DNA of 64,000 nucleotides. Source: Nitrospira sp. GTDB lineage: Bacteria; Nitrospirota; Thermodesulfovibrionia; Thermodesulfovibrionales; SM23-35. The notes under the pieces were generated by a model. The model was not told where the DNA came from. It did no database searches and worked only from the letters and a program-made list of their open reading frames with translations. How positions within the stretch are numbered: the stretch's first letter is position 1; each line of letters begins with the position of its first letter. The stretch covers positions 5,101 to 69,100 of the forward strand of contig VGWX01000002.1 in assembly GCA_016873615.1 (NCBI GenBank), in the 5' to 3' direction. The position numbers were made by a program, and so were the translations under genes. Below are positions 45,410 through 64,000 of the stretch, piece after piece.

Positions 45410-45446
45410 AATTTTTTATAATATGGTAAACGTGAAGGAGAGAAAG

Positions 45447-46745
45447 ATGATCTGGAATAAAGAAGCAGAGGGCATGCGCATTGGGGAAAGGGAGAAACTG
45501 CAGCTCGAAAGACTGAAAACAAGCCTTGGGCGGGCATATAAAAATGTTCCCTATTACAAAAAACGGTTTGATGAAATGAAAGTCAAACCCGGAGACATAA
45601 AAAGCCTGAAAGACATTAAAAAACTCCCTTTCACTACAAAAACCGATTTAAGAGAAGGGTATCCTTTTGGATTATTTGCAGTTCCCTGTAAAAAAATAAT
45701 AGAGGTGCATACTTCGTCCGGAACTACCGGAAAGCCGACGGTATCCGGATACACAAGGAAGGACATAGAAATCTGGGGCGAGGTGATGGCGCGTGCCCTC
45801 ACCATGTGCGGAGCGTCAAAAGACTCTATTATTCAAAATGGCTATGGCTATGGCTTATTTACAGGGGGGCTCGGTGTGCACTACGGAGGTCAAACAATCG
45901 GGGCAACGGTAGTCCCCGTGTCTGCGGGGCAGACCAAAAGACACCTCGATATTATGCAGGACTTCGGGTCCACAATCCTCACCTGCACGCCTTCTTACGC
46001 GCTGTATTTAACCGAGGCGGTTGAAGAAGCGGGCATAAATATAAAGAGGTTAAAACTTAAGGCAGGTTGCTTTGGCGCTGAGGTATGGACCGACAGGATG
46101 CGGGATGAAATCGAGAAAAGGTTTCATCTTATTGCTCTCAATATTTACGGACTGACTGAAATAATCGGACCCGGCGTTGCGCAGGAATGTGACCAGAAAA
46201 ACGGCCTCCACATTTGCGAAGACCACTTTTACCCTGAAGTTGTCTCTCCTGAGACTTTGGAGCCCCTTCCGGAAGGAGAAAAGGGAGAACTGGTTCTCAC
46301 TACATTAACCCGCGAGGGTATGCCCATGATCCGTTTCAGGACCAGGGATATAACCACCTTAAGAAGAGAACGCTGCAAATGCGGAAGAACTCTCGTACGG
46401 ATGGACCGGATAACCGGACGCACAGATGACATGTTAAAGATAAGGGGAGTTCTTATCTTTCCTTCCCAGATAGAAAAAGCGCTCCTTGAGGTCAAAGGGG
46501 TAGAACCGCATTATCAGATTATCGTAACCCGACCGCAGCACCTTGATGAAATAGAGGTTCAGGTCGAGACTTCAAAGAAGATATTCTCGGATGAAGTGAA
46601 GCAGCTTGAGGAAGTGAAGAAAAAGATAGAAAAGCATATTGAAAATTCAATCGGGTTGAGGGTGAAGGTTACTCTGGTTGAACCGAAGACCCTTCCGCGC
46701 AGTGAAGGCAAGGCTAAGAGGGTTATAGACAAACGTCAATTATAA
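45447..46745 (+). CDS. paaK: phenylacetate--CoA ligase family protein (copy 3)
   Basis: MIWNKEAEG...LQLERLK aligns with the N-termini of copies 1 and 2. AAGGAGAG RBS before 45447 (the ORF opens at 45423). [25 protein letters not shown]. Confidence 0.88.
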
Positions 46746-46756
46746 AGGAGAGTGCC

Positions 46757-47188
46757 ATGGAAGTAAAACAGATATCCTTATTCTTAGAGAATAAAAAAGG
46801 AAGGTTATGGGAAGCGATGGATGTTTTGGCAAAGGCAAAAATTAACATCAGGGCTCTCTCAATCGCTGACACATCCGATTTTGGAATCCTGCGTTTAATT
46901 GTTCCTGATCCCGATAAAGCAAAAAAGGTTCTCACAAAGAGCAACTTTACTGTCAGGGAAAACGATGTGATAGCAGTCGGCGTATCCGATAAGCCCGGAG
47001 GCTTGGCAGGAATACTGAAGATTTTAACCGATGCTGATATCAATGTCGAATATATGTATGCCTTTGTTGAGAAAAGCGGAGAAAAGGCAATTGTGGTGCT
47101 GCGGACAGACAGCATCAGCAACGGGAAAAAAGCGCTGAAAAAAGCTGGGATTACTGTGCTCTCTTCTCGGGATGTATATGGGTTATAG
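46757..47188 (+). CDS. tandem ACT-domain protein (copy 3)
   Basis: 143 aa. [29 protein letters not shown] and [28 protein letters not shown]. Confidence 0.8.
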
Positions 47189-48779
47189 CTTTTCTTCTCA
47201 TTTTCGCAAGTCTCCTTGTCACAAACACACAGGGCCTGCGTGAAATAACAACGTTGACCCCTTGAGCATCCAGCTTTTCTTTCAGGATTGCTTTTGTTTT
47301 CTCAACTTCAAAGGGATCGACCACCTCAATAGAATTCACGCCGCAGGATCTGCAAAGTTCCTCAAGAGAGATTTTTCCACCCTCTTCTCCCTTTGCAGTT
47401 ATACCGGTTAATGGTGTTGGCTGGTTCCCTGTCATTGCAACCGCTGAATTATCCAGAATGAGCACAAGGATATTTGCCTTGTTATAAACAGCATTGATCA
47501 GAGCAGGTATTCCGGAATGAATAAAGGTGGAATCTCCAATTACTGCTGCCACTCTTTTTACACCTTGTTTAGAAATTCCTGCTGCCTTACTAATGCCGGC
47601 TCCCATGCAGAGGCAGGTATCCACTATCTGATAGGGGGGATTAGCGCCAAGCGTATAGCAGCCGATATCACCGGCAGTAAATGTAGGCTTAACCGCTTTC
47701 AGAGCAGTATAGAGCTTGCTATGTGGACAACCCGGGCACAAAACAGGTGGTCTTGCTGGTAAAGGCTTAGAAGGCATATAACTTCTCTGACCTGTATTCC
47801 AGTCCGGGATATATTCAGATAATACATCGGGGCCGAGTTCCCCTGTGATGCTAATTTCCCCGGAAATCTTCCCCTTCACTTTAGTAGAATATCTTCTTGC
47901 GATCTCCTCCATAAAGGGTTCGCCTTCTTCCAAAACCCAGATTTCTTCAAGCCCTTCCACAAAATCTTTAATCAATGTTTCGGCAAAAGGGTAATAAGAT
48001 ATCTTCAGGATGGCATATTCAGGGCCATACTCTTTTGCATAGACATACCCGATGCCACAGGCTATAATCCCTTTTTTCCGTCCATTCTTAAAAGTCCTGT
48101 TCAATCCTGATTTTTCGCCCCAGATTCTTAAACCTTCCTGTTTTTCGATCAAATTTCTGTGACATCTCAACACATTGCTCGGGACAGCGATCATGTTCGC
48201 AGGATCTTTCCGTAGTAGAAGAGGGTTCTGCTCCCGAACAGTTCCTAACCTGACTGGTGAATAGGCATGGCAAATCCTTGTCACCGTCCTCAACATCACC
48301 GGAAGGCCCATCTTTTCGGATAATTCGAAGGCCATGATCGTCATATCCTTGGCTTCCTGTGAATCACACGGCTCAAGACATGGTATTTTTGCAAATTTTG
48401 CATAGAAACGGGAATCCTGTTCATTCTGTGAAGAATATGCGCTCGGATCATCAGATACAGCAAGGACTAACCCTCCTTTAATTCCGAGGTATGCAGCAGT
48501 CATTAAAGCGTCTGAAGCAACATTAAGTCCTACATGTTTCATGGAACATAATGCTCTTTTCCCAGCATAGGAAGCGCCGATTGCCGTTTCCAAACTCACT
48601 TTTTCATTTACCGCCCATTCAACTTCGCCATCGAAATTATGTGCGATATATTCGAGAATTTGCGTTGCAGGGGTTCCTGGATAACTTGTTGCCAGGGATA
48701 TCCCTGCCTCTATTGCACCCCTTCCAATTGCATCGTCACCTAACATGATAATTTCCTGATTCACTTGATTTAGTTTCAC
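47151..48779 (-). CDS. iorA: indolepyruvate:ferredoxin oxidoreductase alpha subunit (short form, no C-terminal ferredoxin domain seen)
   Basis: 542 aa. N-terminal pyrimidine-binding domain ([13 protein letters not shown]), CPGCPH cluster motif, TPP motif GDSTFIHSG...NSAVAMTG. Ends about 25 aa after ISRRPC. Confidence 0.82.
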
Positions 48780-51120: not shown

Positions 51121-51723
51121 TCAGGCCTTTTGTCTCTTTCTGTGCCATAAAATATAAGCTAAGATCAGCAATGCACAGCCGATTATTGCGTATATGCTCC
51201 ACTGCCTGCTGACTTCGAGAATCTTCTCTTTATTGTTCCCGACAAAATACCCGATATATGCAAGTATCCATACCCAGATTCCGGCGCCGAAGGCGGTATA
51301 GAAAGAGAATTCAAGGAGATTCATTCTGCAGAGCCCGGCAGGAAACGATATATAATGCCTGACCCCAAGAATGAGTCTGCCGATGAAGGTACTTATATGC
51401 CCATGCTTCAGAAAGAATAACTCCCCTTTCTCAAAATGGCTTTTAGAAACACCGAAATATTTCCCATATTTCAGAATGAACGGCCTGCCGAAAAAGACAG
51501 CTATTGCATAGTTGAACAGCGCTCCCAAAACACTGCCTACGGTACCGGACAGGATCACCCCTGCCCAGCTCATCTTGTTCTGTGAGATAAGATATCCGGC
51601 AGGCGGTATCACAAGCTCTGAGGGCAATGGAATAAAGGTGCTTTCTATAAACATCAGAAGCACTATGCCGGGATAGCCTACAGTGCCAATTGTATCAATC
51701 AACCAGTTTAGAAACGCGTGCAT
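51121..51723 (-). CDS. DedA-family membrane protein
   Basis: 200 aa. FIESTFIPLPSELVIPPAGY and GRLILGVRHYISFPAG signatures. Confidence 0.85.
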   Translation of the reverse strand: MHAFLNWLIDTIGTVGYPGIVLLMFIESTFIPLPSELVIPPAGYLISQNKMSWAGVILSGTVGSVLGALFNYAIAVFFGRPFILKYGKYFGVSKSHFEKGELFFLKHGHISTFIGRLILGVRHYISFPAGLCRMNLLEFSFYTAFGAGIWVWILAYIGYFVGNNKEKILEVSRQWSIYAIIGCALLILAYILWHRKRQKA

Positions 51724-51901: not shown

Positions 51902-52186
51902 TTACTTTTTTACGGGCTTGTTCTTATCCATTAAAATCTGGCACGGAGATATGCTTCCTTTATAAACCTCTATATGGCAACTGCAACAATCTGTAATGTT
52001 GTTACCTGCCCTTTCTACCATTTTCTGATATTTTTGAGGATTCTTGATCTTTACTTTTTCGATATGCTCTTTCATTCCCTGCAACTGATCTGGAGGACTT
52101 ATGATTGGTTGAGCATCTGAGTTAACTCTTCCACAGAAAATAAAACTCAGACATATAATTGCAATAATCGTTACATGTTTCAACAT
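51902..52186 (-). CDS. small secreted monohaem c-type cytochrome
   Basis: 94 aa. Signal peptide MLKHVTIIAIICLSFIFC. Single CCSCH (CxxCH). Last gene of the cytochrome string. Confidence 0.65.
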   Translation of the reverse strand: MLKHVTIIAIICLSFIFCGRVNSDAQPIISPPDQLQGMKEHIEKVKIKNPQKYQKMVERAGNNITDCCSCHIEVYKGSISPCQILMDKNKPVKK

Positions 52187-52200
52187 ATGATCAATCTCCT

Positions 52201-53499
52201 TTAAAACAATGGTTTACCATAAGGAGTACCATCAATTGAACTGTTGCCGTGATAATGGCAATCCATGCAATTACGGTAATTTCCGCCTCCTGGATGGCAT
52301 TTTCCACACCCTAAACCTGAACCCGTAGGATGAGTATGCAGGTCCCCAACATTAAGATTGGTATGACATTTGCCGCAAAGCCATACCCATTCCTTCTTTG
52401 CCCTTCCATCAGGGCCTGTACCGTTGCCATTGTTTATGACAGTAACCACTCCGTTATTAACCTGTTTCCTTACAAGATAATTATTCGGTGAACCATGCGG
52501 TTCATGGCAATCTGTACAGGCTGTTATATATTGCCCGCACTTTGTCAGCCCATCGTAAGGCATGGCTAAAAGCGATGTTGCGCCCTGAGAACAATAGGTT
52601 GCCATATAGCCGCCATGATTTTCATTCGCCCAGTTAAAAGTTCGTAAATTTCTCAGCAGCTGATTGCTGTAAATAATGTTTGAGTTATTATGACAGTCGA
52701 TGCAAAATGTATTAAAATCAGCTAAATTGGACCCATCCTGAGTTGATGAACCGTCAGGTTCATATCCTGATGCAGCATTCGGCGCCTGGTAAATTCCGCC
52801 AAAAGAATTTGCATACATGTTCATCCTCTCTGCTGCAGCATCGCCCCAAAGGCCCCATGCATTATTATCCTTGCTGTGGAGACTTGGCCGTGAAACAGGG
52901 GAATATCCTCTTGTACCGGAGGTTTTCCTGCTGTTTGGCGCATTGGCAGGGTCTCCCTTTACCGCATGAGGATTATGACATGCAGCACAGGGATTGGAAT
53001 CATTTGTAAACCCCCATCTTCCATTGATAAATGTTTTTATATTGCCGAGGTTGTGGGAAGTCGCTGGTGAAATAAATGAGAATGCCTCCTTAATGTCATT
53101 CAGTGAATCAGCATAACCGCCTGCACGGTAGCTGTAGCTGCGGTTTATAAGACCTCCTGTTTGAAATGAGCTCAGGTCTGTATGACACTGAAAGCAAACA
53201 TTATCTGTCTGGTTTATATGATTGTTGTAGAACAGGGCATATTTGTCAGGGCCTCCAGTTGGGTTAGGCTCGGCTCCGCCGATGCTCGCATGCTGCTCAT
53301 GGCAGTGAACACAATTGCCAACTGAATAACCAAAAGAACTGATACTTGTACGGCTTACTCCATACGTGTTCTTTCCATGGGCAGAGTCAAGATAAGGCCC
53401 TGAATCGACAGTGTCAGGATACAGGAAGCATAGAGCTAAGAGCATAGAGCCAAGAGTAACTATCTGAAATTTTTTATTAAAACACTTATCTTTCTGCAT
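52201..53499 (-). CDS. secreted multihaem c-type cytochrome, 8 CxxCH
   Basis: 432 aa. CVHCH, CFQCH, CAACH, CIDCH, CTDCH, CGKCH, CGKCH, CMDCH. Low haem density with long Gly/Asn/Ser-rich loops. N-terminal CVHCHEQHASIGG resembles the neighbouring OmcS-like N-terminus. Confidence 0.85.
   Translation of the reverse strand: MQKDKCFNKKFQIVTLGSMLLALCFLYPDTVDSGPYLDSAHGKNTYGVSRTSISSFGYSVGNCVHCHEQHASIGGAEPNPTGGPDKYALFYNNHINQTDNVCFQCHTDLSSFQTGGLINRSYSYRAGGYADSLNDIKEAFSFISPATSHNLGNIKTFINGRWGFTNDSNPCAACHNPHAVKGDPANAPNSRKTSGTRGYSPVSRPSLHSKDNNAWGLWGDAAAERMNMYANSFGGIYQAPNAASGYEPDGSSTQDGSNLADFNTFCIDCHNNSNIIYSNQLLRNLRTFNWANENHGGYMATYCSQGATSLLAMPYDGLTKCGQYITACTDCHEPHGSPNNYLVRKQVNNGVVTVINNGNGTGPDGRAKKEWVWLCGKCHTNLNVGDLHTHPTGSGLGCGKCHPGGGNYRNCMDCHYHGNSSIDGTPYGKPLF
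53427..53461. repeat. 7-bp tandem repeat tract (AGCATAG AGCTAAG AGCATAG AGCCAAG AGTAACT)
   Basis: Five units in register, inside the signal-peptide coding region (GSMLLALCFLY) of the 8-haem cytochrome. Confidence 0.75.
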
Positions 53500-53543
53500 A
53501 AATCCTCTTATTTGTATTTATTCTCTCTTCAGTTTGCTCTTTA

Positions 53544-54746
53544 CTAATTCTTTGACGTATGACATACATTGCATCCATTTGGCTGACCATTTCCCGGCCA
53601 ACTCTTATAATCCCATCGCAACATCTTGAAATATGGCGATGCATGTGCCCGGTGACAGGAAAGGCACATAACCAGGTCTGTACCCAGCGTCACGGTACCA
53701 CTTGGTCCTGTCCAGCCACTCAAGGTAGGTCTTGCCACTGGAACTAATGGGTTATATGTACCTGTTGCACCGGAGGCACCGAAGGCGCTTGCATATTCAT
53801 CACTGTTGGGTATGATCAAATCCGAGGGATGTCTGATCCACGGGCTTCCGGTCGTTAGGTCATCCTCAATATGAAAATTTCCGTGACAACCGGTGCAGTA
53901 TGCTGTCATGGTATTTTCTCCGATCGCCGAGAACCCTCCAGCGGAAGTTTTTGTTCCGCTTGCACCTAAATATTCGTTATGATCGGTTGCGCTTGCACTA
54001 TATTGCCAGTCATCATCTTCTATGCCTGCCACACCAAAACCGGAACCACTTTTATGACCATCCAGAAAGCGGAACCATCCTTCAGCGGAGCTGTCTACAA
54101 CCGGACCTGTATCATCGAGGTGATGGTAACCTTTCGGACTGTCGCTTCCAACCATATGACATTTTGTACAGCCCTGACGGGAGGTATCGAACCCGAAGTA
54201 GGGTGGGCCCGTAGTTCCGTGAATATTCTCGTGGCATGAATTGGTCCCGCTGCATCCCCATGATTTTCCGGGCGCTTCATTTAATGTACTTTCAGGGTTT
54301 GAGGCAAAAATATTGTGTCCGGTGGTGTCCTCTGTCTGCACCCAGTAGAAATTTCCTGCCGACAGACCCATCACTGCATTATAGGAAGGCTGCTGGCTGT
54401 TGAAGACGATAGGCGCACCGGTTAACGGATCTTTCCAGGCACTCCCATCTGTCTTTGAATGGCAACCCAAACATGATCCGCGCAGGAGAGACTGTTTAGG
54501 TTTTGTATCACTTTCATCAGGAGCAAGGTACTGCATGTGGGCACCATTCTGACTGTTATGCATGGTATGGCAATTACTGCAATTACCGGTGACTTTGGCC
54601 TCCAGCTGCAATGCATAACTCCATAAGGCCATTACTGTAGAACAAATAAAAAATGCAGAATAAAATGAACGTAATCCTTTATTTTTTGCTTTTAAGCACA
54701 TTTTCCCCATGTCAGATGCCTGCGATCTATTCTCAATAAAAGACAT
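53544..54746 (-). CDS. OmcS-like secreted multihaem cytochrome (6 CxxCH + one CX5CH-like site)
   Basis: 400 aa. CSNCHTMHNSQNG, CLGCH, GHNI, CSGTNSCH, CTKCH, CTGCH, IRHPS, CLSCHRAHASPYFKMLRW, C-terminal CNVCHTSKN. Colinear with my recollection of Geobacter OmcS. The real start may be Met13 (54710). Confidence 0.8.
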   Translation of the reverse strand: MSFIENRSQASDMGKMCLKAKNKGLRSFYSAFFICSTVMALWSYALQLEAKVTGNCSNCHTMHNSQNGAHMQYLAPDESDTKPKQSLLRGSCLGCHSKTDGSAWKDPLTGAPIVFNSQQPSYNAVMGLSAGNFYWVQTEDTTGHNIFASNPESTLNEAPGKSWGCSGTNSCHENIHGTTGPPYFGFDTSRQGCTKCHMVGSDSPKGYHHLDDTGPVVDSSAEGWFRFLDGHKSGSGFGVAGIEDDDWQYSASATDHNEYLGASGTKTSAGGFSAIGENTMTAYCTGCHGNFHIEDDLTTGSPWIRHPSDLIIPNSDEYASAFGASGATGTYNPLVPVARPTLSGWTGPSGTVTLGTDLVMCLSCHRAHASPYFKMLRWDYKSWPGNGQPNGCNVCHTSKN

Positions 54747-54977
54747 TTCTATATATGAAGCAAAAGATATACCATGCAGTCCGATGAAGATAATTTAAGC
54801 ATTAGTTACATTATTTTACCAGATTCATCCCGCACGGTTCAATTAAGAATTAATCTTTTTGCTGATATAGCTTATTGTCAGGAGTTACAGGAAATTATTT
54901 CCGTACTGAAGAAGATGCCTTCTTAATTATCTATTGCTAATTTTACTGCCCCGCATTATCGTATCATTCTCAACATT

Positions 54978-56360
54978 CTATTTCTTATGGCACTGGATGC
55001 AGAGTTGTCTCTTTCTGTCGAAATAGAGCATAAAATCCGCTTTGGCAGAATGCATGCTGTGGCAGGTAATACAGGTAATTCCCTTGCCATTGCGCGGGTC
55101 TTTTACATTTTCTCCCAGGGGGTGAGTAATCTTGTGCTGCTGGGTATGACACTTTGCACATGTATGTATATCGTCTGCCCTGAAGTAGAGTACATTACGG
55201 GAATGGGGAGGGGCATGACAATCAAAGCATTTCCTGTCTTTCACAGGAACACATCTTATAGATTTCAATGCCTTCTCCATAAAAAGCGTTCTCTTTTCGG
55301 TAGTTTCGTGGCAGGAATAGCATAAAAGCGTTTCCTTGCCTGTAAGATTCTTCCTTTTTGAAGCGTGATGGCTGTGGCACATGGTGCATTCGCCCTTCTT
55401 ATTGTCGATGTGAACATCGTTTTCCTTTATTACAAAAGTGTCTTTCTTATGACAGTTGAGACATAATGCCTTTCCGGACAATTTCGTTGTTACCTTTTTA
55501 CCGGATTCGATAGGGTGATGGCATTCTTCACACTTCATTTCCAGAAATGCCTTATGTCCATAAGGTCCGAGACGGCCCCTTGTATTGGAAGAGTGCCCGC
55601 TGTGGCATGATGTGCAGTCTGATTTGTCTATTGCAGCCGTTATTGAAACCCCTGCAACCTTGCATCCGGCAAAATGACATTTACGGCATAAAGCATTGGG
55701 AGTTCCAAGGATCAGATCCTCTGACGAAGATGCATGCGGATCATGGCAGGATGAGCATTGCCCTTCCTTGAATGGATTGTGCAGAAAAGATTTTTTCAAT
55801 TCGTCTTTCAAATGTCCATGGCAACCCCAGCACAGGTCTTTTTGAGCTTTCACCAATAGTTTTTTATTGTCACTGCCATGGGCATGATGGCAATCCGTAC
55901 ATGTTCCCCTTCTCACCGCATTATGCACGAAATTCTTCTTTAACGCCTTATTTATCCCTTCGTGACAGGAGAGGCATAAGGAATTAATATCCTCCTTAAG
56001 AAGACCTTTCACACTCCCTGCATGAGAATTATGACATGAATTGCATTTCCCATCCTTAAAAGGAAAATGAACCGAGTTGCGTGTCAGGCTGTCTTTAAGC
56101 TTTATATGACACCTGTAGCAGAGATCAGGCGCTTTTTCTTTAAGATCACCCTGAGCATAGGCGAAAACAGCGAATAGCGTAGAGGTAAGAGCTAAGAGTA
56201 CGAAGCATATAGCATATTGCATATAGCGTAGAGCTGTTAGCGAAGAGCTTGGAGCAAAGAGCTTAGAGTCTTTAGCTCTTGGCTCTTTACCCTTGGCTCT
56301 TTGCTCCTGGCTCCTTGCTCTTGGCTTATTCATGACAGGCTCTGCAATCACCTTTTCCAA
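54978..56360 (-). CDS. periplasmic multihaem cytochrome, 16 CxxCH
   Basis: 16 CxxCH counted by hand in paired-CxxCH spacing. The start is ambiguous: 56360, 56333 (MNKPRARS, ATGAATAA overlap with the upstream stop) or 56222 (MQYAICFVLLALTSTLFAVFAYA, a clean signal peptide). Confidence 0.85.
   Translation of the reverse strand: MEKVIAEPVMNKPRARSQEQRAKGKEPRAKDSKLFAPSSSLTALRYMQYAICFVLLALTSTLFAVFAYAQGDLKEKAPDLCYRCHIKLKDSLTRNSVHFPFKDGKCNSCHNSHAGSVKGLLKEDINSLCLSCHEGINKALKKNFVHNAVRRGTCTDCHHAHGSDNKKLLVKAQKDLCWGCHGHLKDELKKSFLHNPFKEGQCSSCHDPHASSSEDLILGTPNALCRKCHFAGCKVAGVSITAAIDKSDCTSCHSGHSSNTRGRLGPYGHKAFLEMKCEECHHPIESGKKVTTKLSGKALCLNCHKKDTFVIKENDVHIDNKKGECTMCHSHHASKRKNLTGKETLLCYSCHETTEKRTLFMEKALKSIRCVPVKDRKCFDCHAPPHSRNVLYFRADDIHTCAKCHTQQHKITHPLGENVKDPRNGKGITCITCHSMHSAKADFMLYFDRKRQLCIQCHKK
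56176..56329. repeat. 22 consecutive 7-bp units in perfect register, with internal dyad symmetry
   Basis: AGCGTAG AGGTAAG AGCTAAG AGTACGA AGCATAT AGCATAT TGCATAT AGCGTAG AGCTGTT AGCGAAG AGCTTGG AGCAAAG AGCTTAG AGTCTTT AGCTCTT GGCTCTT TACCCTT GGCTCTT TGCTCCT GGCTCCT TGCTCTT GGCTTAT. 154 bp = 22 x 7. Confidence 0.85.
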
Positions 56361-58275
56361 AAGGATTGTGTTTGTTTTTTCTTAACATACCCTGTTTTTC
56401 AGTAACATGCGGCTCATGACATGAAAGACAATGTTTTATATTTGCTATAGGCTTCATGTGTGCCTTCAACAGCTTTTCCGAATCAGCTGTATGGCATTTA
56501 ACACACAAGTCCGGGTCCTTTGCATTAACCATTGATTTCGAAACCGAGAAATGTGACAGATGACAGCTGAGGCAGTCGCCTTTTTCCATATCGATATGCC
56601 CTTTTCTTGCAGTGGTCGTAACGATCCTTTCATGACATGACAGACAGAGTTCTTTCGGCCTGTTTAAAAGCAGGTTATCCATCCTGGTTCCATGGGCGCT
56701 ATGACAAGCCGAACATTTCCCTTCTTCGGCAGGCAGATGTTTAACAGCGCTTGCCGCCATATCCGTCTCCATTTTCCTGTGGCAATCAAAACATAGATCG
56801 GGCATCGCCTTAATCGCATGACCTGCATATTCACTTGCATGAGGGTCGTGACATTTCCCGCAGGTCTTTTCCTTAAATGGTTTGTGTACGGATCCTTCCT
56901 TCAGGTCGAGAAGCATATTCCCGTGACAGCTCATGCAGAGCTGGTCCGGCATATTGTTTAATAATTTCGGGTAAGAAGAGGCATGAGGTTTATGACAGGA
57001 GATGCATTTTCTGTTATTGACGGGATTATGGATATATGTCTTGAAGAAATCTTTTTCCTCTTTTTTATGACATGTGTAACACAAGCCGGAGACGGGGGTT
57101 TTCATCATATGCGGATTATTGCTGCCATGTGAGTCATGACAGCTGCCGCATTCCACCTTTGAAAAAGGCATATGCATGTTTTTTTCCTGCAGCTCCTTTT
57201 CTGTCTTTACGTGGCATGTAAAACAGAGCTTTTTCCCTGATGCCTTCAGATAGAATGGGTTGGGAGAAGCATGCGGGTTATGGCACGCTGTGCAGCCCTT
57301 GTCTTTAATCGGAGCATGCAAAGCGCTCACCTTTAACAGGTCTGTTTTTTTCTTGTGGCAGTTTATGCAGAGGTCATTTTTGTCCATGAGTGTAACCTTT
57401 GCATAATCAGTCGCGTGGGGGCTGTGGCAGCTCAGACATTTATCTTCATCTGCAGGACGGTGTCTGTGTGCCTCTCTGAATTCCTTTTCCTCCTTTTTAT
57501 GGCAGGTGTAGCAGAGTTTCCCGCCGGAGGCTACAACATCTAACGGTTTGGGGTCGTTCACTGCCTTGTGGCACGATGAGCACTGACCGGTTTTCAAAGG
57601 CGCATGGATCGACTCCCTGAGAAGTTTTTGATTTGTCGAACTGTGCGGGGTATGACATCCGCTGCATCTGCCTTTTTGAACAGGATAGTCTTTATGGGCC
57701 ATTCTGAATTTATCGGCAGTTACATTATGGCATGTCTGGCAGAGTTCAAGTTCAGGTTTCAACAGGTTGTTCTCATATTGCGAACCGTGAGCCGAATGGC
57801 ACGTGATACATCCGTCTGACATCGGTTTATGTCTTTTGGCGCGCGTGAAAGGCGTCTGATTATGACAGGTAAAGCACTGCTCGCTCCCTGTCTTTTTCTG
57901 AAGTGACTTGTTTTCCGATGCATGAGGATTATGACAGGGAAGGCATTTGCTCTGCTTCAGCGCAGTATGAACATGTGTTGTATTTTCGATATTTGCTGCC
58001 ATCTGTTTATGACATGTGAAACAGAGCCTTCTCTCTTCTCTCTCCTTAAGGGTCAATACGGCAATCTTTCCGTGACGGAGATGACATGCCTCACAGTCCC
58101 TCTTTGCGGCAGGGGAGTGGACATACTTCTTCTGGAATTCAGTCAGTTTTGTTTTATGACAATCCAGGCACGGCTTTGCCACAAATCCTTTACGCACTGT
58201 TTGTTCAGGCGCACAGGTATAAAAAAGAATACCGAAGATGAAGAGCGCCGGAAGAAGGTTAATTAATCTTTTCAT
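56326..58275 (-). CDS. periplasmic multihaem cytochrome, 26 CxxCH
   Basis: 649 aa. 26 CxxCH counted by hand in a regular VH.P....C..CH.PH / LC..CH doubled-CxxCH pattern. N-terminal hydrophobic segment ending FYTC. Confidence 0.9.
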   Translation of the reverse strand: MKRLINLLPALFIFGILFYTCAPEQTVRKGFVAKPCLDCHKTKLTEFQKKYVHSPAAKRDCEACHLRHGKIAVLTLKEREERRLCFTCHKQMAANIENTTHVHTALKQSKCLPCHNPHASENKSLQKKTGSEQCFTCHNQTPFTRAKRHKPMSDGCITCHSAHGSQYENNLLKPELELCQTCHNVTADKFRMAHKDYPVQKGRCSGCHTPHSSTNQKLLRESIHAPLKTGQCSSCHKAVNDPKPLDVVASGGKLCYTCHKKEEKEFREAHRHRPADEDKCLSCHSPHATDYAKVTLMDKNDLCINCHKKKTDLLKVSALHAPIKDKGCTACHNPHASPNPFYLKASGKKLCFTCHVKTEKELQEKNMHMPFSKVECGSCHDSHGSNNPHMMKTPVSGLCYTCHKKEEKDFFKTYIHNPVNNRKCISCHKPHASSYPKLLNNMPDQLCMSCHGNMLLDLKEGSVHKPFKEKTCGKCHDPHASEYAGHAIKAMPDLCFDCHRKMETDMAASAVKHLPAEEGKCSACHSAHGTRMDNLLLNRPKELCLSCHERIVTTTARKGHIDMEKGDCLSCHLSHFSVSKSMVNAKDPDLCVKCHTADSEKLLKAHMKPIANIKHCLSCHEPHVTEKQGMLRKNKHNPFGKGDCRACHE

Positions 58276-58309
58276 AATTTATTCCATGAGTTCCAGAATT
58301 AATGAACTA

Positions 58310-58415
58310 CCCCGCAGCAAGCTGCGAGGTATCTTATATGCAACATGTGCTTAGGTAAACATCCCCCCTCAAGAGGGAGGTTATATGTATATAACCCCGA
58401 AGCAGAGCTTCGAGG
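58310..58415. repeat. two related GC hairpins (REP-like) in the PPIase-cytochrome intercistronic gap
   Basis: CCCCGCAGCAAGCTGCGAGG (58310-58329) and CCCCGAAGCAGAGCTTCGAGG (58395-58415) share the frame CCCCG-xAGC-loop-GCTx-CGAGG. Confidence 0.6.
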
Positions 58416-58472
58416 AATTCGTTGATTAAATAATTATCAATAAGCATATGCTATATGTCAAGCAAAATTATT

Positions 58473-59876
58473 TTACTGGTTAAATTTTTTTTCAATAGCC
58501 TGTATCTCTTCTTCATTTATCTTTACCTCGGCGTCTTTCTTCAGTTTGTCTATATACCTGTTCAATTTGGTGTTCACCTGTTCATTTACGTATGCTTTAT
58601 GCACGTTATTCCTGACCCTGGCATATTCTTCGTTCACTTCCCCTGTTCTATCCTGTATCCTGAATATTTTATATAACGAATCAATCGTGATTACCGGACT
58701 TATTTCTCCTGTCTGCAGGTTATCTATTATTTCAAGAACTGGTTTCGGCAGTTCCGCCTTTGTAAACCATCCGGACTCTCCGCCCGTGGATGCAGCAGAA
58801 TCAGTTGATCTTCTTTTTGCAACCCAGGAAAAATCAGCGCCATTCTGAAGGCTTTTCAATATTTCCTGCGCGTCATCCATGGTTTTTACGGTAATCTGCT
58901 GGATTTTAAAACGGACCGGTCTGATAAAGTCTTTCTGATGTTCTGTATAGTAGTCCTGCAGATTCTTTTCTGTGACGACTATCTGGGGAATAATTACCCT
59001 TTTGATGTATGTATTTTTGAGAAGCTGGTTTTCATAACGGTCAACCATCTTCCGGAATCCTGGATTCATTCTGTAATTCCGCCTGAGGGCCTCGTGATCC
59101 ACTGCTTTACGGTCGATCCATTTCTCAAGTATATCTTCCTTTTTTGGTTTCTTGAGAGCAGGCGTGATCATGGCAAAAAAATCTCCCACCGTCAGGATCG
59201 AACTGTTTATCTCTGCCAACTTCCTTGGATCTTTAGACCATTTCTCAGTATCCTCTTTCTTCCCGTCCGGCTCTATCTCAGAAAGAAGTTCCTTGTCAAT
59301 CTTAACAGTAATTTTTTCACGAAGGGATTTCAGATATTCATCGCCCCGCTCTTTCTCCCTTTGTTTCCTGATCTCCTTTGCTATTCCGGCCTTAACACTA
59401 TCAAATTCTTTATTCTCATAATTCTTTGCATGGTAGTCTTTGATTTCTTTTTCTGTTACTGAAACCTTCTGCACAATCTCCTCGTCATGCAGCCTTACAA
59501 CAGATTCCCTCAGGACATATGCAGCAACAGCCTGGTGAAGCTCCGGATACGTGTCCATTCCGGCATTGCGCGCTTCGTTGATGATTAATCTGTCATCTAT
59601 CTGCTTCTGAACATGCTGAGTTAAATTCAGGGCGCCTGCTGTCGAGAGGTCCTCTCTGCGGTGGGCAATATTCAAAGTATATTTAAGATCTTCCTCTGTT
59701 ATCGGCTCACCGTCAACAACCGCCAGAACCGGCTCTTTTTGCGAAAGCGATGCACAACCACCAAAAAAGAGCAAAGAGCTTAGAGCAAAGAGCACAAAGC
59801 GTAAAAAATAAATTTCAATGCCCGTTGTTCGTTGTTTTCTGCTCTTCGCTCTTGGCTCTTGGCTCTTTATCTCCAT
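58473..59876 (-). CDS. SurA-like lipoprotein peptidyl-prolyl isomerase (parvulin domain)
   Basis: 467 aa. Lipobox-like LLFFGGCAS. SurA-N-like helical region. PpiC domain (FKIQQITVKTMDDAQEILKSLQNGADFSWVAKRRSTDSAS..GGESGWF). Confidence 0.8.
   Translation of the reverse strand: MEIKSQEPRAKSRKQRTTGIEIYFLRFVLFALSSLLFFGGCASLSQKEPVLAVVDGEPITEEDLKYTLNIAHRREDLSTAGALNLTQHVQKQIDDRLIINEARNAGMDTYPELHQAVAAYVLRESVVRLHDEEIVQKVSVTEKEIKDYHAKNYENKEFDSVKAGIAKEIRKQREKERGDEYLKSLREKITVKIDKELLSEIEPDGKKEDTEKWSKDPRKLAEINSSILTVGDFFAMITPALKKPKKEDILEKWIDRKAVDHEALRRNYRMNPGFRKMVDRYENQLLKNTYIKRVIIPQIVVTEKNLQDYYTEHQKDFIRPVRFKIQQITVKTMDDAQEILKSLQNGADFSWVAKRRSTDSAASTGGESGWFTKAELPKPVLEIIDNLQTGEISPVITIDSLYKIFRIQDRTGEVNEEYARVRNNVHKAYVNEQVNTKLNRYIDKLKKDAEVKINEEEIQAIEKKFNQ
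59770..59874. repeat. 15 seven-bp units in register, two arms of opposite polarity
   Basis: AGCAAAG AGCTTAG AGCAAAG AGCACAA AGCGTAA ... TGCTCTT CGCTCTT GGCTCTT GGCTCTT. 105 bp = 15 x 7. Encodes MEIKSQEPRAKSRKQ...FVLFALSSLLFF of the PPIase. Confidence 0.8.
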
Positions 59877-60889
59877 GTTGTTTTACCCATTTCCTTCACC
59901 AGATTTGATACTGCCTTGTAAGCCACAGTCTCTGCAGCATTCATCCTTCCCATATCGAACACAAATATATTGTCATCGCCTTTAGTGTCATTGCTGTCAG
60001 ACCACAATAATCTGTCTTTATGAGCATCTATTAATCTTGCGTTTACAGAAGCTTCAGGCGGCATAGCGCCTTCCCCTTCAGAGAATTTTTCCACAGTTCC
60101 AACGATGATTCCATCTACACCCGAGGCGCCTGATATAGCTGCTGTTTTTTTCAGGTCTAATTCCCCTTTCTCTTTTACCCTTAAATCAACTACCAGCCGT
60201 CTTACTTCACCGTATTCTACAGGAATGAATCTTTTGTTTTTAAATAGCTCCACTATGAACATGTATGTCACTGCTATCCCGGCGTCTTTCACCCTGCTAT
60301 TGTTCTGAAAAGGCATTACAGCAATTCTATATGTCGACTCCATTTCTTTATTCGGCAGACTAAGGGTAAGAGAACTGTGCAATTTGCCTATGACCTTAAC
60401 TGCAAGCGCATCAATGATTGTTATAGTTCCAAGTCCCAGGATTCCGGTAAAATCATCTCCTGTTGCAGATGCATGATCCGCCCATATAATATCCCCGGTT
60501 AAAGAATCTACAAGACGCGCTGAAAAACCTATCCGTGGATTTTCTCCGCTATAGAAGGAATTGATTGATCCTATAAATACCGTCTTAACATTCAACTCTT
60601 CTCCCAATTTTAGCGCAAGGTCTTTTGTTATATATCCGGTGCATCTGATTCTTTCCTTAAGCAGAAATTTCTCAAGAGTATCTTCATCGAGCACATCAAG
60701 CCCTATTGACTCTAACCCGTCCCTCACCAAAGGCATGACAAATGCCACGGCATTTTTATCTTCACTAAGGTTTTCAAATGGAAACAGAGCTATTCTTCCG
60801 TAAAAATCCTTCTGGGCAGTATGCCCTGAATTAACAGCAAAGAACATAGAGCATAGAGCTATTAGCAAAGGGTATAGAACAAAAAACAT
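59867..60889 (-). CDS. secreted protein with two tandem GNA1162/LpoB/CsgG-N-like domains
   Basis: Start at MFFVLYPLLIALCSMFFAV (60889); the ORF stays open to 61090. Two repeats each starting RIA[LV].PF.N.S and ending ..ARL[VI]D...........W.D. Confidence 0.65.
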   Translation of the reverse strand: MFFVLYPLLIALCSMFFAVNSGHTAQKDFYGRIALFPFENLSEDKNAVAFVMPLVRDGLESIGLDVLDEDTLEKFLLKERIRCTGYITKDLALKLGEELNVKTVFIGSINSFYSGENPRIGFSARLVDSLTGDIIWADHASATGDDFTGILGLGTITIIDALAVKVIGKLHSSLTLSLPNKEMESTYRIAVMPFQNNSRVKDAGIAVTYMFIVELFKNKRFIPVEYGEVRRLVVDLRVKEKGELDLKKTAAISGASGVDGIIVGTVEKFSEGEGAMPPEASVNARLIDAHKDRLLWSDSNDTKGDDNIFVFDMGRMNAAETVAYKAVSNLVKEMGKTTWR

Positions 60890-60919
60890 AGAGTTTTTAA
60901 CTCTTCGCTCTTTGCACTT
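60843..60919. repeat. 11 seven-bp units in register
   Basis: AACATAG AGCATAG AGCTATT AGCAAAG GGTATAG AACAAAA AACATAG AGTTTTT AACTCTT CGCTCTT TGCACTT. Overlaps the signal-peptide codons and the 60889 start. Confidence 0.7.
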
Positions 60920-60952
60920 GCTAATAAGAGCATAATTAAAACCACATGGTAT

Positions 60953-61016
60953 GTCATTCCCGCTTGTCGGGAATCCTTCTGAAAAGCAAGAAAGATTGCG
61001 GACAAGCCGCAATGAC
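60953..61016. repeat. MITE-like palindromic element, GTCATTCC family (copy 2, 64 bp, inside an open reading frame)
   Basis: GTCATTCCCGCTTGTCGGGAATC (60953-60975) and GATTGCGGACAAGCCGCAATGAC (60994-61016). Same termini as 25076-25161. Confidence 0.7.
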
Positions 61017-61057
61017 AATATCGTGAGGAATGTGTACTTGCTTATGATCTCCTTATT

Positions 61058-61092
61058 AGCTTTTAGCTCTTTGTATTTTGCTCTTTGCATTT
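61058..61092. repeat. 5 seven-bp units (AGCTTTT AGCTCTT TGTATTT TGCTCTT TGCATTT)
   Basis: Read directly. Contains the 61090 ATG and encodes MQRAKYKELKA on the minus strand. Confidence 0.65.
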
Positions 61093-61670
61093 TATTTGTA
61101 AAGAGTCTGAATCGCCTCTTTGACCACCTTCAAAGCAGCTTCACTCATAGTGTCTGACCTTGCACCAAAATGCTTTGCCCAAAAATCAACGCCCCCCCTT
61201 GTCTTTGTTACCGACCATATGATACTTCCGGAGCTTGTATCAGCCATCATCAGCGTGATAGAAACTTCCGGAGAGGAGATATTTCCTTCTCTGACTTCCC
61301 CGAATTTGTTGACAGCGCCGAATATGACAGCCTGTACCTTAAGGGCTTTGCCGATAGCTTTTATCTGCTCTGCATTCGGAGACTGGCCTGTTTTTAATTT
61401 CAGGGTTTCGATAGCAGATATCACATCCCCGGGACATGTTACATCAACAAGTCCTGATGCCAGAAACTCGCTGATAACAATATGCCGTACAGCATCACCG
61501 GCAAATCTTTCGTTTGTCAGATTATCCAGAGGCAATACAGCCACCCTTTTTATAAAACTGAAGTCTGTATCCTGATTTATATAATGTGAAGGAGCGGCCT
61601 TCCCTCCACAGCCCGTTAAGAAAAATAATGCAAGCATGCAAATCGCAAAAAATGTTTTCAGCATTCTCAT
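61092..61670 (-). CDS. GNA1162/DUF799-like lipoprotein
   Basis: 192 aa. Lipobox FFLTGCGG. RVAVLPLDNLTNERFAGDAV...VQAVIFGAVNKFG...ITLMMADTSSGSIIWS pattern. Confidence 0.7.
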   Translation of the reverse strand: MRMLKTFFAICMLALFFLTGCGGKAAPSHYINQDTDFSFIKRVAVLPLDNLTNERFAGDAVRHIVISEFLASGLVDVTCPGDVISAIETLKLKTGQSPNAEQIKAIGKALKVQAVIFGAVNKFGEVREGNISSPEVSITLMMADTSSGSIIWSVTKTRGGVDFWAKHFGARSDTMSEAALKVVKEAIQTLYK

Positions 61671-61724
61671 CTTCTCCTGTCTCTCAATAACTTTTTGTTA
61701 AGCAATTTTCACACCAGTAAACCT

Positions 61725-61746
61725 CCCCGCCGCAGAGACGGCGGGG
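61725..61746. repeat. GC-only hairpin CCCCGCCG-CAGAGA-CGGCGGGG
   Basis: 8-bp all-GC stem in the 101-bp gap between the two lipoprotein paralogues. No convincing U-tract on the gene strand. Confidence 0.6.
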
Positions 61747-61771
61747 TATTTAAAAATATTAATAAACAATA

Positions 61772-62371
61772 TCAAAATAATGAACTTATAGACTCCCTTA
61801 CTACCTTCCCGGCAGCTTCACTCAAAGAAGGTCCTTCTGAACCAAAATGTCTGGTCCAGAAGTCAGGGCCGCCGGTTGTATGACGCACAGACCATATAAT
61901 ATTTCCTGATGGTGTGTCGATCAACCGCAAATGAATAGTCACCTCAGGATATGTAACAGAAATCCCCCTGCTTATTCCGAAGGATTCTACCGAACCCATC
62001 ATTACTGTTTTTACATCAAGCGCTTTGCCGATATCCTGTATTTCAGACATTTTCAGTGAACCGACAGATTTGATCTTCAACTCCTTCAAAAGTCTCGTAA
62101 CTTCTCCGGGCTCTGTTACCTCTATCCCTCTAATCAGAAGTTCCGTAATCACAAGCTTCCTGATCTTTTCATGAGCATGTTCATCTGCTGTAAAGTTTTC
62201 AAAAGGCATTGCGGCGATTTTCTTTATTGTGCCGGTGTCGGCTTTCAGCTTTGCAGCAACTCTTGGGCTGCATCCATATGCAAAAACAAACAAAAAGCAT
62301 AGAGCATAGAGCACAGAGCATAGAGCTAATCCACCCACCCCACTCTTAGCTATCCTTACCATAATCTGCAT
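61772..62371 (-). CDS. GNA1162/DUF799-like lipoprotein (paralogue)
   Basis: 199 aa. LFVFAYGCS lipobox-like. KIAAMPFENFTADEHAHEKI...VKTVMMGSVESFG...IHLRLIDTPSGNIIWS. Colinear with 61092-61670. Confidence 0.7.
   Translation of the reverse strand: MQIMVRIAKSGVGGLALCSVLYALCFLFVFAYGCSPRVAAKLKADTGTIKKIAAMPFENFTADEHAHEKIRKLVITELLIRGIEVTEPGEVTRLLKELKIKSVGSLKMSEIQDIGKALDVKTVMMGSVESFGISRGISVTYPEVTIHLRLIDTPSGNIIWSVRHTTGGPDFWTRHFGSEGPSLSEAAGKVVRESISSLF
62296..62330. repeat. 7-bp tandem repeat tract (AGCATAG AGCATAG AGCACAG AGCATAG AGCTAAT)
   Basis: The most regular tract. Encodes LALCSVLYALCFL of the lipoprotein signal peptide. Confidence 0.8.
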
Positions 62372-64000
62372 GTCAGATATCCGCCAAACACATATGTCTC
62401 TTTCTTCGTATCATTTGTCTCGCGTGTATAGTTATAGGAGAACTGAAAATCAAGAAATCTTGTAATATGCCATATCAAATAGCCGCTAAAAGAATCGGTT
62501 AACGTTGTATCCGGCCTTGTATCTTTAAATGTATGCTGGTAATTAAAATTCATACGGACAGCAGGAAGAAACAACCAGTCTATCAAAATCCCTTCTGAGC
62601 TGGTTGTTTCATTATCCGTATCTGATACGGAAAAACTACCTGACAGGCTGAAAAACCTGCCCGGACGATATGTAAGCAACATCAATGCATCGTTCGTGCT
62701 CGAAGAACTGCTGCCCGAAGCGCTGCTCAATCCATACGTTAGGTTGGCCGAGACTTTTGAAGAGAGACGCGCATCAAGCGTTCCCCTGACATACCGTGTT
62801 GAGGAGCTGGTGTCTTCCGAAGTTGCTGAGTCCGCTGACCGACTGTTGGTCGCATATGTCCTGGAATCAGTATATCCTATATCAGCAATCATATTCACAT
62901 CCCTGTAAAGTTTTGCCCCTACTGTCAGAAAATACAAACTGTTCATCGAGTGTTTTTCATTAAAATCAAAGGAATAAGTTCTGACAAAAGAGAGGTTCGT
63001 ATCGAGCGTTGGAAGAGGAGATGAATTAAAGGCTAATGAGTATGTATCTGATCTGATATCTGTCTTTTCTTTGTTGTCAAATGCCTGATTCCTCTCAAAC
63101 CTTGCTGTTGTTGCCAGATATCTCTGGATAAGCCACGTTGAAGATGCCCCGAAGTTTCTGGTTATATTGCTTTGAAGCATATTTCCGTTTTTCTGTATGG
63201 AATTCGTAAAGATGTTTGCAAAAGCGCCGCCGATTGAATTGATAACTGAAGCAGGGTTCTGGTCAGCCCTGTTCAGGAAATAATTAAGCCTGAAGGAAAG
63301 GACGGCTGAAGGCTTTATATTGGCATTAAAGCTGACGCCCTGGGTAAAGAATGTCGAAGTATCAGTGATTTTGCCTGACTGAGGTATAATATCAGCGCCA
63401 TAAGCCTCCATCTCCGTGACAAATACATCATTTACAGACGATACCTCCATATTGATCGCCCTGAAAAAAAGACTGTTCTGGGGGGCTGCAAATTTGATTT
63501 CGTATCGGTAAACATTATTTACAATATCAAAAACATGTGCGTTTACAGTCAGGATATTTATCTCTGTCCATGTATTGGGCAGGTTATATTCACTCTTATA
63601 GACTTTCCAGTTTGACCTCTGTATTAGCTCTGTATCCGATGTGATATCCTTATTGACATAAATGTACAGTGTATCAACGGGTTTCGCTGACGAAAACAGC
63701 TGGATGCCTGTATTATGGAACTTCTTCCCGTTCTGACCTATATTAATTGTACCTGAAGTTGTTGTCGCCGGAATATTGTAAATATTATCGCTCAGTGTTA
63801 TCGTTGCAGTTAATATATCCGCATCAGGTTCGAGCTGGGTACCCGATCCGTATATTCCCATTGAAGGCATCCGTTTGAATGAAACGCTTCCTGTCTGAGC
63901 GGCAAACTGCTCGATCTTGTTGCGGAAGTAATTTCCCTGATAACCTGCTGATGCATTGATCCTGCCGTCCCAAAAAGCTTTGCTATACCCGATGTTATAC
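62356..64000 (-). CDS. large outer-membrane beta-barrel-like protein, 5' end beyond the right edge
   Basis: The frame stays open from 63870 to 64000 (…YNIGYSKAFWDGRINASAGYQGNYFRNK…). Ser/Thr/Asn/Tyr-rich alternating strands. C-terminus GGYLTCRLW (terminal aromatic). Overlaps the next gene by 16 nt. Confidence 0.6.
   Translation of the reverse strand, partial: YNIGYSKAFWDGRINASAGYQGNYFRNKIEQFAAQTGSVSFKRMPSMGIYGSGTQLEPDADILTATITLSDNIYNIPATTTSGTINIGQNGKKFHNTGIQLFSSAKPVDTLYIYVNKDITSDTELIQRSNWKVYKSEYNLPNTWTEINILTVNAHVFDIVNNVYRYEIKFAAPQNSLFFRAINMEVSSVNDVFVTEMEAYGADIIPQSGKITDTSTFFTQGVSFNANIKPSAVLSFRLNYFLNRADQNPASVINSIGGAFANIFTNSIQKNGNMLQSNITRNFGASSTWLIQRYLATTARFERNQAFDNKEKTDIRSDTYSLAFNSSPLPTLDTNLSFVRTYSFDFNEKHSMNSLYFLTVGAKLYRDVNMIADIGYTDSRTYATNSRSADSATSEDTSSSTRYVRGTLDARLSSKVSANLTYGLSSASGSSSSSTNDALMLLTYRPGRFFSLSGSFSVSDTDNETTSSEGILIDWLFLPAVRMNFNYQHTFKDTRPDTTLTDSFSGYLIWHITRFLDFQFSYNYTRETNDTKKETYVFGGYLTCRLW

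Follow-up and report, generated by a model that had tools for sequence, protein, structure and literature searches.

This report concerns a string of envelope and cytochrome genes at one end of a stretch of 64,000 nucleotides (contig VGWX01000002.1, positions 5,101 to 69,100), hereafter the window, from a metagenome-assembled genome (MAG) labelled Nitrospira sp. Open reading frame (ORF) calling and direct reading place ten co-directional ORFs on the minus strand from 64000 to 51902 (Table 1), and every product has a signal peptide at its N-terminus. They encode, in order, a large beta-barrel, two small lipoproteins (lipoA and lipoB), a protein with two further copies of the lipoprotein domain, a peptidyl-prolyl isomerase (PPIase) lipoprotein, a 26-haem and a 16-haem cytochrome (c26 and c16), two cytochromes related to the filament subunit OmcS (cyt6 and cyt8, or c6 and c8) and a small monohaem protein. 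The intergenic gaps, listed in order from barrel to monohaem gene, are -16, 101, 1, -10, 197, -35, 231, 44 and 14 nt, which agrees with the overlaps or short gaps mentioned in a preliminary description of this DNA; its haem counts of 26, 16, 6(+1), 8 and 1, and its hand count of 57 CxxCH motifs, proved exact when we recounted them (26, 16, 6, 8 and 1). It had spoken of eleven genes, but we find ten, and the gene that follows the cluster at 51121-51723 encodes an unrelated DedA/VTT-domain protein. We think it likely that this string is the downstream two-thirds of an osc-type locus, the gene set that accompanies omcS, in a Thermodesulfovibrionales-like MAG, and that it would make, export, anchor and feed an extracellular OmcS-type cytochrome, most likely a polymer.

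The osc cluster of Geobacter sulfurreducens comprises GSU2493-GSU2504 (Shen et al. 2025, Cell Chem Biol 32:239, as summarised in PMC13194489), and published anchors within it are oscC (GSU2501), oscI (GSU2495) and oscJ (GSU2494), together with a propeller, OscD, and a PPIase, OscH (PMC13194489). GSU2495 is a protein of about 70 kDa with 26 haems, and a block of eight genes, GSU2500-2493, follows the OmcS-like gene in every Geobacter genome that has it (bioRxiv 10.1101/2025.11.06.686851); GSU2497 is annotated as a lipoprotein. With OmcS from PDB 6EF8 as the query we fetched 78 loci encoding OmcS homologues of 50-67% identity, which span Geobacterales, Nitrospirota, Myxococcota, Acidobacteriota, Rokubacteria and others. 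G. sulfurreducens PCA is not among them (the best OmcS match is 67% identical), and the osc names used here are therefore assigned by gene order and the published anchors, not by alignment to GSU sequences. BLASTP shows one constant arrangement in these loci: downstream of omcS and on the same strand, after a gap of some 1.5 kb, comes a large ORF and then, in turn, a small lipoprotein, a two-domain protein, a PPIase, c26 and c16. The ORF maps of Citrifermentans bremense (L029) and of a Thermodesulfovibrionia MAG (L039) display this string. A resemblance to the Geobacter omcS locus had been suggested in the preliminary description, and homologues of everything from the barrel through c16 do lie in the same order downstream of omcS homologues.

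Homologues of the small lipoprotein are present in 56 omcS loci (at about 34% identity), of the two-domain protein in 53, of the PPIase in 42 and of c26 in 33; matches to the ORFs at the OscF and OscG positions have BLASTP E-values of 6e-36 and 3e-41. When the count is confined to the 51 loci with at least 7 kb of downstream sequence, the small lipoprotein is found in 45, the two-domain protein in 44 and the PPIase in 39. Dissociation of the two halves of the cluster was looked for in both directions: barrel and lipoproteins without cytochromes were never seen in lineage contigs seeded via the lipoprotein gene, and omcS cytochromes are accompanied by the lipoproteins in the 45 of 51 loci just mentioned. 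The former comparison is limited to this lineage (at least 45% identity) because it used a closer alignment, A3, the cross-phylum alignment being too divergent. The window thus holds an OmcS-family gene, a barrel at the OscE position, proteins at the OscF and OscG positions, a PPIase, and a 26-haem followed by a 16-haem cytochrome, while the OscD propeller is found outside it, through another contig. This contig, L163, matches window 60991-64000 at 100% identity and continues upstream of it, where it carries the complete 794-aa barrel, a 519-aa propeller lipoprotein directly upstream of the barrel, and the end of an NHL propeller. Homologues of the 519-aa protein occupy the OscD position in 63 omcS loci. 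The window therefore truncates the cluster, and the actual unit is longer.

By gene order and published anchors, then, the cluster is of the osc type and hence of a kind already described, so that the label 'undescribed' in the preliminary description does not hold (PMC13194489); its idea of an envelope module for building and supplying an extracellular haem protein gains support from the homology to omcS loci. The likeness extends to the barrel, small lipoprotein, two-domain protein, PPIase, c26 and c16 in identical order, to the propeller upstream and to the OmcS-family genes in the locus. Unlike the canonical cluster, this one has an additional small lipoprotein; its two-domain protein is, in this lineage, without a lipobox; an NHL propeller and the 519-aa propeller are adjacent and upstream in this organism; and two OmcS-superfamily genes lie downstream of c16, besides the upstream copies seen in relatives. 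A subunit family with a CX5CH site, a conserved 8-haem derivative, a small monohaem protein and heptamer arrays at gene starts are further differences. For the omcE nanowire cluster, Petersen et al. (bioRxiv 10.1101/2025.10.22.684050) describe a large beta-barrel and the subunit together with a pair of multihaem cytochromes and a pair of beta-propeller lipoproteins. Compared by this description, the relatives of the window likewise have two propellers and a large barrel, but the subunit here is OmcS-like and not the tetrahaem OmcE.

Within the lineage the arrangement is strongly conserved. In four relatives, one to three OmcS-like genes are followed by an NHL propeller and a second propeller of about 530 aa; next come the barrel, lipoA and lipoB, then the two-domain protein and PPIase, and last c26, c16, c6 and c8. 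When the two-domain protein alone was used to scan metagenomes, 80 loci were recovered, and this order holds in all contigs of 9 kb or more (counts for each gene, relative to the contigs with enough flank, are given in Table 1). The full order recurs in about 40 independent metagenome contigs, and its conservation is for this reason beyond chance. We also considered a split into unrelated operons at the 197-nt and 231-nt gaps, and rejected it because the order is kept across these contigs and across phyla.

Table 1. Features of the osc-type cluster in window coordinates, with the number of related contigs in which each gene is present out of those with enough flank (scan seeded by the two-domain protein).
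Feature	Position	Strand	Present / contigs with enough flank
Upstream OmcS-like genes			11/18
Propellers			29/30 and 22/23
Barrel, C-terminal 547 aa, OscE position	62356..64000, cut by window edge	-	36/37
lipoA, small PelC/GNA1162-like lipoprotein, 199 aa	61772..62371	-	50/51
lipoB, small PelC-like lipoprotein, 192 aa, lipobox LTGC, OscF position	61092..61670	-	56/59
Two-PelC-like-domain protein, 407-aa ORF, OscG position	59867..61090	-	
PPIase lipoprotein, SurA_N-like + parvulin, lipobox FGGC, OscH position	58473..59876	-	54/55
PPIase-c26 spacer	58276..58472	-	
c26, 26-haem cytochrome, 649 aa, OscI / GSU2495 position	56326..58275	-	36/37
c16, 16-haem cytochrome, OscJ position	54978..56360	-	34/35
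cyt6 (c6), OmcS-family 6(+1)-haem cytochrome, 400 aa	53544..54746	-	25/25
cyt8 (c8), 8-haem cytochrome, 432 aa	52201..53499	-	19/22
Monohaem exported protein, 94 aa, CCSCH	51902..52186	-	
Heptamer array, PPIase 5' end	59766..59867	-	
Similar heptamer arrays	53427-53456, 56204-56326, 60836-60927, 61052-61093, 62296-62326	-	
Heptamer arrays in other contigs	L163 2365-2500; L079-L082; many of L083-L162		

The proposed cargo of the cluster includes cyt6, which is 28% identical to OmcS (6EF8) by BLASTP over OmcS residues 9-346, shares with it the motifs CHTMHNS and CLSCHRAHAS, and belongs to a family that aligns with the OmcS family in hhalign at 99.8% (E 8e-30). It is collinear with OmcS residues 7-349 (PDB 6EF8/6NEF) and similar to it in length and in glycine and proline content. 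Set against the six CxxCH in conserved order that characterise the OmcS family, cyt6 has five in register, and the site of OmcS haem 3 is occupied by a CX5CH motif (C165-SGTNS-C171-H, pattern C.G...CH), which accounts for the '+1' in the preliminary count and is conserved in the orthologues. Of 52 lineage members, 46 have this motif at the haem-3 site, against 0 of 101 canonical OmcS-like ORFs, and the alignment suggests that the cyt6 family has probably retained six haem sites, one of them through a different motif. The sixth canonical CxxCH of cyt6 comes from an insertion, TTGPPYFGFDTSRQGCTKCHMVGSD (window 54140-54215, residues ~178-202), that is confined to the window copy, the orthologues in L079 and L080 being without it; because of this extra motif the window copy may bind seven haems. 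The low identity, the CX5CH site and this insertion separate cyt6 from OmcS. The family is large, with 932 clusters at 50% identity (E up to 0.001).

Homologues of cyt8 (the window protein is MBM4144828.1, FJ240_00920) are numerous in Nitrospirota and have eight CxxCH and eight additional invariant histidines. The family aligns with the OmcS family in hhalign at 96.8% with five haem motifs in register, and the protein consists of an OmcS-like five-haem core with a C-terminal, three-haem, c7-like extension. Single sequences of cyt6 and cyt8 searched against the PDB with phmmer return no nanowire cytochrome, the homology being apparent only by pairwise BLASTP and profile-profile comparison. At the first CxxCH, a CxxCHxxH motif with a histidine three residues further on is conserved in 50 of 52 c6-like, 60 of 61 cyt8-like and 100 of 101 canonical OmcS-like ORFs (CSNCHTMHNS in the window cyt6). 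The inter-subunit ligand of OmcS haem 5 is reportedly His16, of this very motif, as Wang et al. are said to have found in 2019. One axial ligand of that haem is supplied by the neighbouring subunit (PMC6584659). The monohaem protein has no family match; its homologues (35-43% identity) lie after the 8-haem gene in five contigs (L084, L087, L149, L159 and L160).

Among the other parts, the PPIase combines a SurA_N-like part with a parvulin domain (Pfam Rotamase_2, E 4.5e-17) and has a lipobox, exactly the SurA-like parvulin lipoprotein of the preliminary description, and it matches the ORF at the same position in omcS loci (BLASTP E 3e-25). The small lipoproteins had been likened to GNA1162/DUF799, with the fold linked to curli secretion and to LpoB. 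Single-sequence matches to GNA1162, LpoB and CsgG in the three proteins that carry the domain are all below the Pfam thresholds, LpoB scoring 22.1 bits against a cut-off of 22.3 (20.9 against 110.6 for TIGR02722) and CsgG 16-20 bits against 20.8. Searched against the PDB, the family profile of the small lipoproteins matches PelC best (5t11, E 3e-8; 5t10, 7e-8; 9h80_C, 1e-7; 5t0z, 7e-5), then GNA1162 (4hrv, 3e-6), with LpoB at 0.02 and CsgG at 0.3. The two small lipoproteins and their likeness to GNA1162 are thus upheld, while the domain is best described as PelC-like and the tie to curli and LpoB falls away; a CsgG-like curli channel or an LpoB function was accordingly discarded, given the sub-threshold scores and the better match to PelC. 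The two further copies of the domain that had been seen in the next protein are there, as PelC-like domains of the 407-aa ORF (E 4e-16 and 1e-22). Its signal peptide ends GYA/AQ, without a lipobox, in this lineage, whereas the canonical counterparts show one, and lipoA, peculiar to this lineage, is an extra paralogue of the OscF-position protein. Some homologues of the two-domain protein (P0084 and P0089) bear a C-terminal OmpA domain (PF00691) of the peptidoglycan-binding kind, which hints that a ring in those proteins could be tethered to the cell wall.

PelC is a well-characterised family, a match that might have counted against a role in this module, yet PelC itself partners an export barrel. 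It forms a dodecameric ring (5T10, 5T0Z), and in the PelBC complex this 12-mer is mounted on the PelB barrel (PMC12141448). The small lipoproteins here are sequence homologues of PelC (PDB 5T10, 5T0Z, 9H80) encoded beside an outer-membrane barrel, and the analogy suggests a similar ring-under-barrel arrangement. The two systems differ in that PelB has 16 strands and tetratricopeptide repeats (TPRs) whereas the barrel here has about 30 strands and an inserted domain; in that the cargo here would be a haem protein, not a polysaccharide; and in that three different genes here give four PelC-like domains, in a putative ring. The same homology could be taken to mean that the barrel and PelC-like genes are a Pel-like exopolysaccharide export unit that happens to stand beside unrelated cytochrome genes. 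We regard this as extremely improbable: the window and its relatives contain no Pel synthase, no glycosyltransferase and no TPR/PelB-type 16-strand barrel, and the same cytochrome genes flank the lipoproteins in essentially every adequate contig and, across phyla, beside omcS. A Pel polysaccharide exporter was rejected on these grounds, the missing synthase genes and the strict linkage to cytochromes.

For the barrel itself, searches of Pfam and NCBIfam give no match, including to the MtrB/PioB porin family. An AlphaFold2 model of P0121, a full-length orthologue (88% identical; pLDDT 89.9), is all-beta with about 30 strands, laid out as some 12 strands, an inserted beta-sandwich (approximately residues 245-395) and some 18 strands. 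Foldseek with this model returns solely large outer-membrane barrels, namely MtrB, TonB-dependent receptors, PapC/FimD ushers and LptD; all TM-scores are low, the best being to MtrB (6r2q_B, TMq 0.36). As modelled, then, the protein is a large barrel with no close solved relative, and the outer-membrane barrel cut by the window edge that the preliminary description had proposed is well founded. BLASTP matches to the barrel-position ORF of omcS loci are weak, but the family profile aligns over 695 columns (hhalign 100%, E 1e-54) with the ORFs of 600 aa or more that immediately precede the small lipoprotein in 45 omcS loci. Pfam describes the haem-dense cytochromes as 'doubled CXXCH', and both match the DmsE/MtrA model TIGR03508 as repeated modules (c26 with 288 bits, c16 with 133 bits). 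Their haem numbers are all but fixed: exactly 26 CxxCH in 36 of 36 and 20 of 22 c26 homologues (two sets), and 16 in all 34 c16 homologues. The copies of c26 in omcS loci are 39-40% identical (E 1e-158).

In combining a large barrel with MtrA/DmsE-like periplasmic cytochromes dense in haem and an outer cytochrome poorer in it, the cluster resembles MtrCAB and the Geobacter porin-cytochrome complexes (PDB 6R2Q), and the locus might encode a porin-cytochrome conduit only. The barrel would then sheathe c26 or c16 as MtrB sheathes MtrA, the OmcS-like proteins would be monomeric surface reductases docked on the conduit, no polymer would be secreted, and the PelC-like proteins and PPIase would merely help assembly. 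The TIGR03508 scores and the best TM-score agree with this reading, as does cyt8, which passes the Pfam threshold for MtrC/MtrF domain II/IV (51 bits), and most OmcS paralogues are not known to polymerise. We nevertheless think it unlikely. The barrel lies outside the MtrB/PioB family and has about 30 strands and an inserted domain, where MtrB has 26; its TM-scores are low; the homologous module has a genetic link to the formation of OmcS filaments; the inter-subunit histidine motif is conserved; and PelC-like rings are known partners of polymer-export barrels. A conduit alone explains neither the PelC-like proteins nor the homology to a locus for filament assembly. There are 26 and 16 haems here against 10 in MtrCAB, the outer partner is OmcS-like and not MtrC-like, and PelC-like proteins, PPIase and propellers are added. 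The classical MtrCAB conduit was rejected for want of the porin family, and the mismatch with the classical porin-cytochrome layout that the preliminary description had noted stands. A hybrid, in which a conduit also mounts a filament, is quite possible and is the combination of the two readings that we prefer.

Under the filament-forming reading, we propose that all ten products would be exported by the Sec pathway and the haems attached in the periplasm. The OscH-like PPIase lipoprotein would hold and fold the loop-rich 6(+1)-haem and 8-haem subunits, for which the OscE-like barrel of about 30 strands may provide the passage through the outer membrane or the mount upon it. Beneath the barrel, PelC-like domains, four to each gene set, could form a periplasmic ring as PelC does under PelB. 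Outside the cell the subunits would polymerise through the histidine of the conserved CxxCHxxH motif, and the OscI/J-like c26 and c16 would carry electrons over the periplasm to the base of the filament. The OscD-like propellers, encoded just past the window edge in the same organism, may act on filament form. In G. sulfurreducens the corresponding roles, folding for OscH, secretion for OscE/F/G and morphology for OscD, are 'proposed' or 'suggested' (PMC13194489).

The direction of flow has an alternative of its own. Multihaem chains are reversible in principle, and the same parts could serve for electron uptake, from minerals, a cathode or a syntrophic partner, by a Nitrospirota cell that reduces sulfate or nitrate; the rest of the window offers no hint of metal respiration. 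The sequence itself holds nothing that sets direction, OmcS-bearing Thermodesulfovibrionia are read as iron reducers in subsurface metagenomes, and uptake would alter the physiology and not the identity of the machine. We consider it quite improbable.

Several points weigh against a secreted filament and should be read together. OmcS alone of four G. sulfurreducens paralogues is known to polymerise (bioRxiv 10.1101/2025.11.06.686851), and homology to OmcS is therefore no proof of a filament. Identity to the canonical cluster is low, at 24-40%, and as noted lower than 30% to OmcS itself (28%). The AlphaFold2 model of cyt8 has a pLDDT of 55, too poor for a structure search. The closest fold of the barrel, MtrB, and the MtrA/DmsE-like character of c26 and c16 would suit a conduit as well. 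The roles borrowed from the Osc proteins are themselves proposals, drawn from the summary in PMC13194489. Finally, polymerisation, secretion and the direction of electron flow are all things that we infer for this lineage.

Cytochrome nanowires have been proposed as a main route for electrons from anaerobes to minerals and to partner cells, and their export and mounting is still termed an open question (bioRxiv 10.1101/2025.10.22.684050). In this locus the whole proposed assembly set has been kept, gene for gene, by a deep, uncultured, subsurface branch of Nitrospirota whose subunits are far from OmcS. This supplies a second, distant data point on which parts are indispensable, namely the barrel, the PelC-like domains, the PPIase, the propellers and haem numbers of exactly 26 and 16. 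It also offers, in the PelC-like ring under a barrel, a concrete structural model by analogy for export, and new candidate filament subunits for structural work. The proteins of these MAGs are currently labelled 'hypothetical', 'TolB-like', 'FlgO family' or 'CsgG/HfaB'. In the papers that we read we found neither this divergent branch and the gene order peculiar to it nor a family of CX5CH subunits, an octahaem derivative, a second small lipoprotein or homology to PelC; Shen et al. 2025 may cover some of these. More tentatively, and we are doubtful of it ourselves, the lineage could make filaments not yet seen, as two homopolymers or one heteropolymer of the CX5CH hexa/heptahaem subunit and the octahaem, c7-tailed subunit, with expression of subunits and envelope parts switched or tuned by heptamer arrays. 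Such a structure would be a phase-variable or hairpin-controlled surface 'wire'.

These arrays are inverted repeats of period 7: in the mRNA, (AGAGCNN)n forms one arm and its complement, (GCTCTNN)n, lies about 45 nt further on. They occupy the 5' ends of at least six cluster genes (that of the barrel is seen in L163). The pattern occurs 13 times in the window, 12 times within the cluster, with none expected by chance. The predicted hairpins are strong, at -47.6 kcal/mol (z -6.3) for the PPIase and -52.6 kcal/mol (z -4.8) for c16, with z down to -12 in relatives. The arrays also encode parts of the signal peptides, namely the charged n-region (EPRAKS...) and the hydrophobic h-region (LYALCS...). 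Relatives that are 87-94% identical differ precisely at the arrays; one has three more units (+21 nt) with the frame kept, and another carries AAACAGT / ACTGTTT, a different pair of heptamers with arms that are likewise complementary. Several families of heptamer unit exist across the lineage. Arrays are found at 16-39% of gene starts in 8 of the 11 families scored, at nil to 9% in the barrel, c26 and lipoB, and at 2 of 54 control ORFs, and 77 of the 78 canonical omcS loci have none. The arrays could serve as an RNA switch, in slipped-strand phase variation or in signal-peptide genesis. Three independent short-read assemblies of one population (L163, L164 and L167), each 100% identical to the window, all end at window 60991. 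This shared end falls between arrays in the leader of the two-domain gene, and the repeats therefore appear to break assemblies.

Rearranged versions of the cluster are seen in the related contigs L147 and L150, where c6 and c8 come directly after the two-domain protein gene; L150 has its PPIase, c26 and c16 further on, on the opposite strand, with more OmcS-like genes. In the otherwise identical contig L165 (~2630; window 60779-60801), a 25-nt deletion in the conserved IALFPFENLS region of the two-domain gene would shift the frame, and could be either a real null allele or an assembly error. In the window, the probable start of the two-domain protein is the ATG at 60889, which gives 340 aa, and that of c16 the ATG at 56222. 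OmcS genes in Thermodesulfovibrionia have been noted by marker-gene surveys. The nearest protein relatives of the source MAG are labelled Thermodesulfovibrionales or Nitrospirota, and its own genus label, 'Nitrospira', is probably loose.

Across the cluster, sites resembling promoters or terminators occur no more often than in shuffled sequence, and the strong terminators that might have split the string into separate units were sought and none was found above that level; an Rfam search of the cluster region returned no match. The best promoter-like match in the region (sigma-70-like, 11/12) lies at 58461-58433, in the PPIase-c26 spacer. It adjoins a 124-nt insertion (58302-58424) with three small GC-rich hairpins (CCYC...GGGG) that is absent from L083 and L153 (87-94% identical) and that looks like a small mobile palindromic element; L080 has a similar GC-rich palindromic insert between heptamer arms. 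The rest of the window carries housekeeping genes, phenylacetate-CoA-ligase-like enzymes and an amino-acid ABC system. Before the cluster in window coordinates, genes at 35843-37141, 43574-44866, 45423-46745 and 47151-48779 include three paralogous phenylacetate-CoA-ligase-like enzymes (AMP-binding and AMP-binding_C_2), an indolepyruvate/pyruvate:ferredoxin oxidoreductase-like protein and a branched-chain amino-acid ABC binding protein, a gene content that points to aromatic or amino-acid catabolism.

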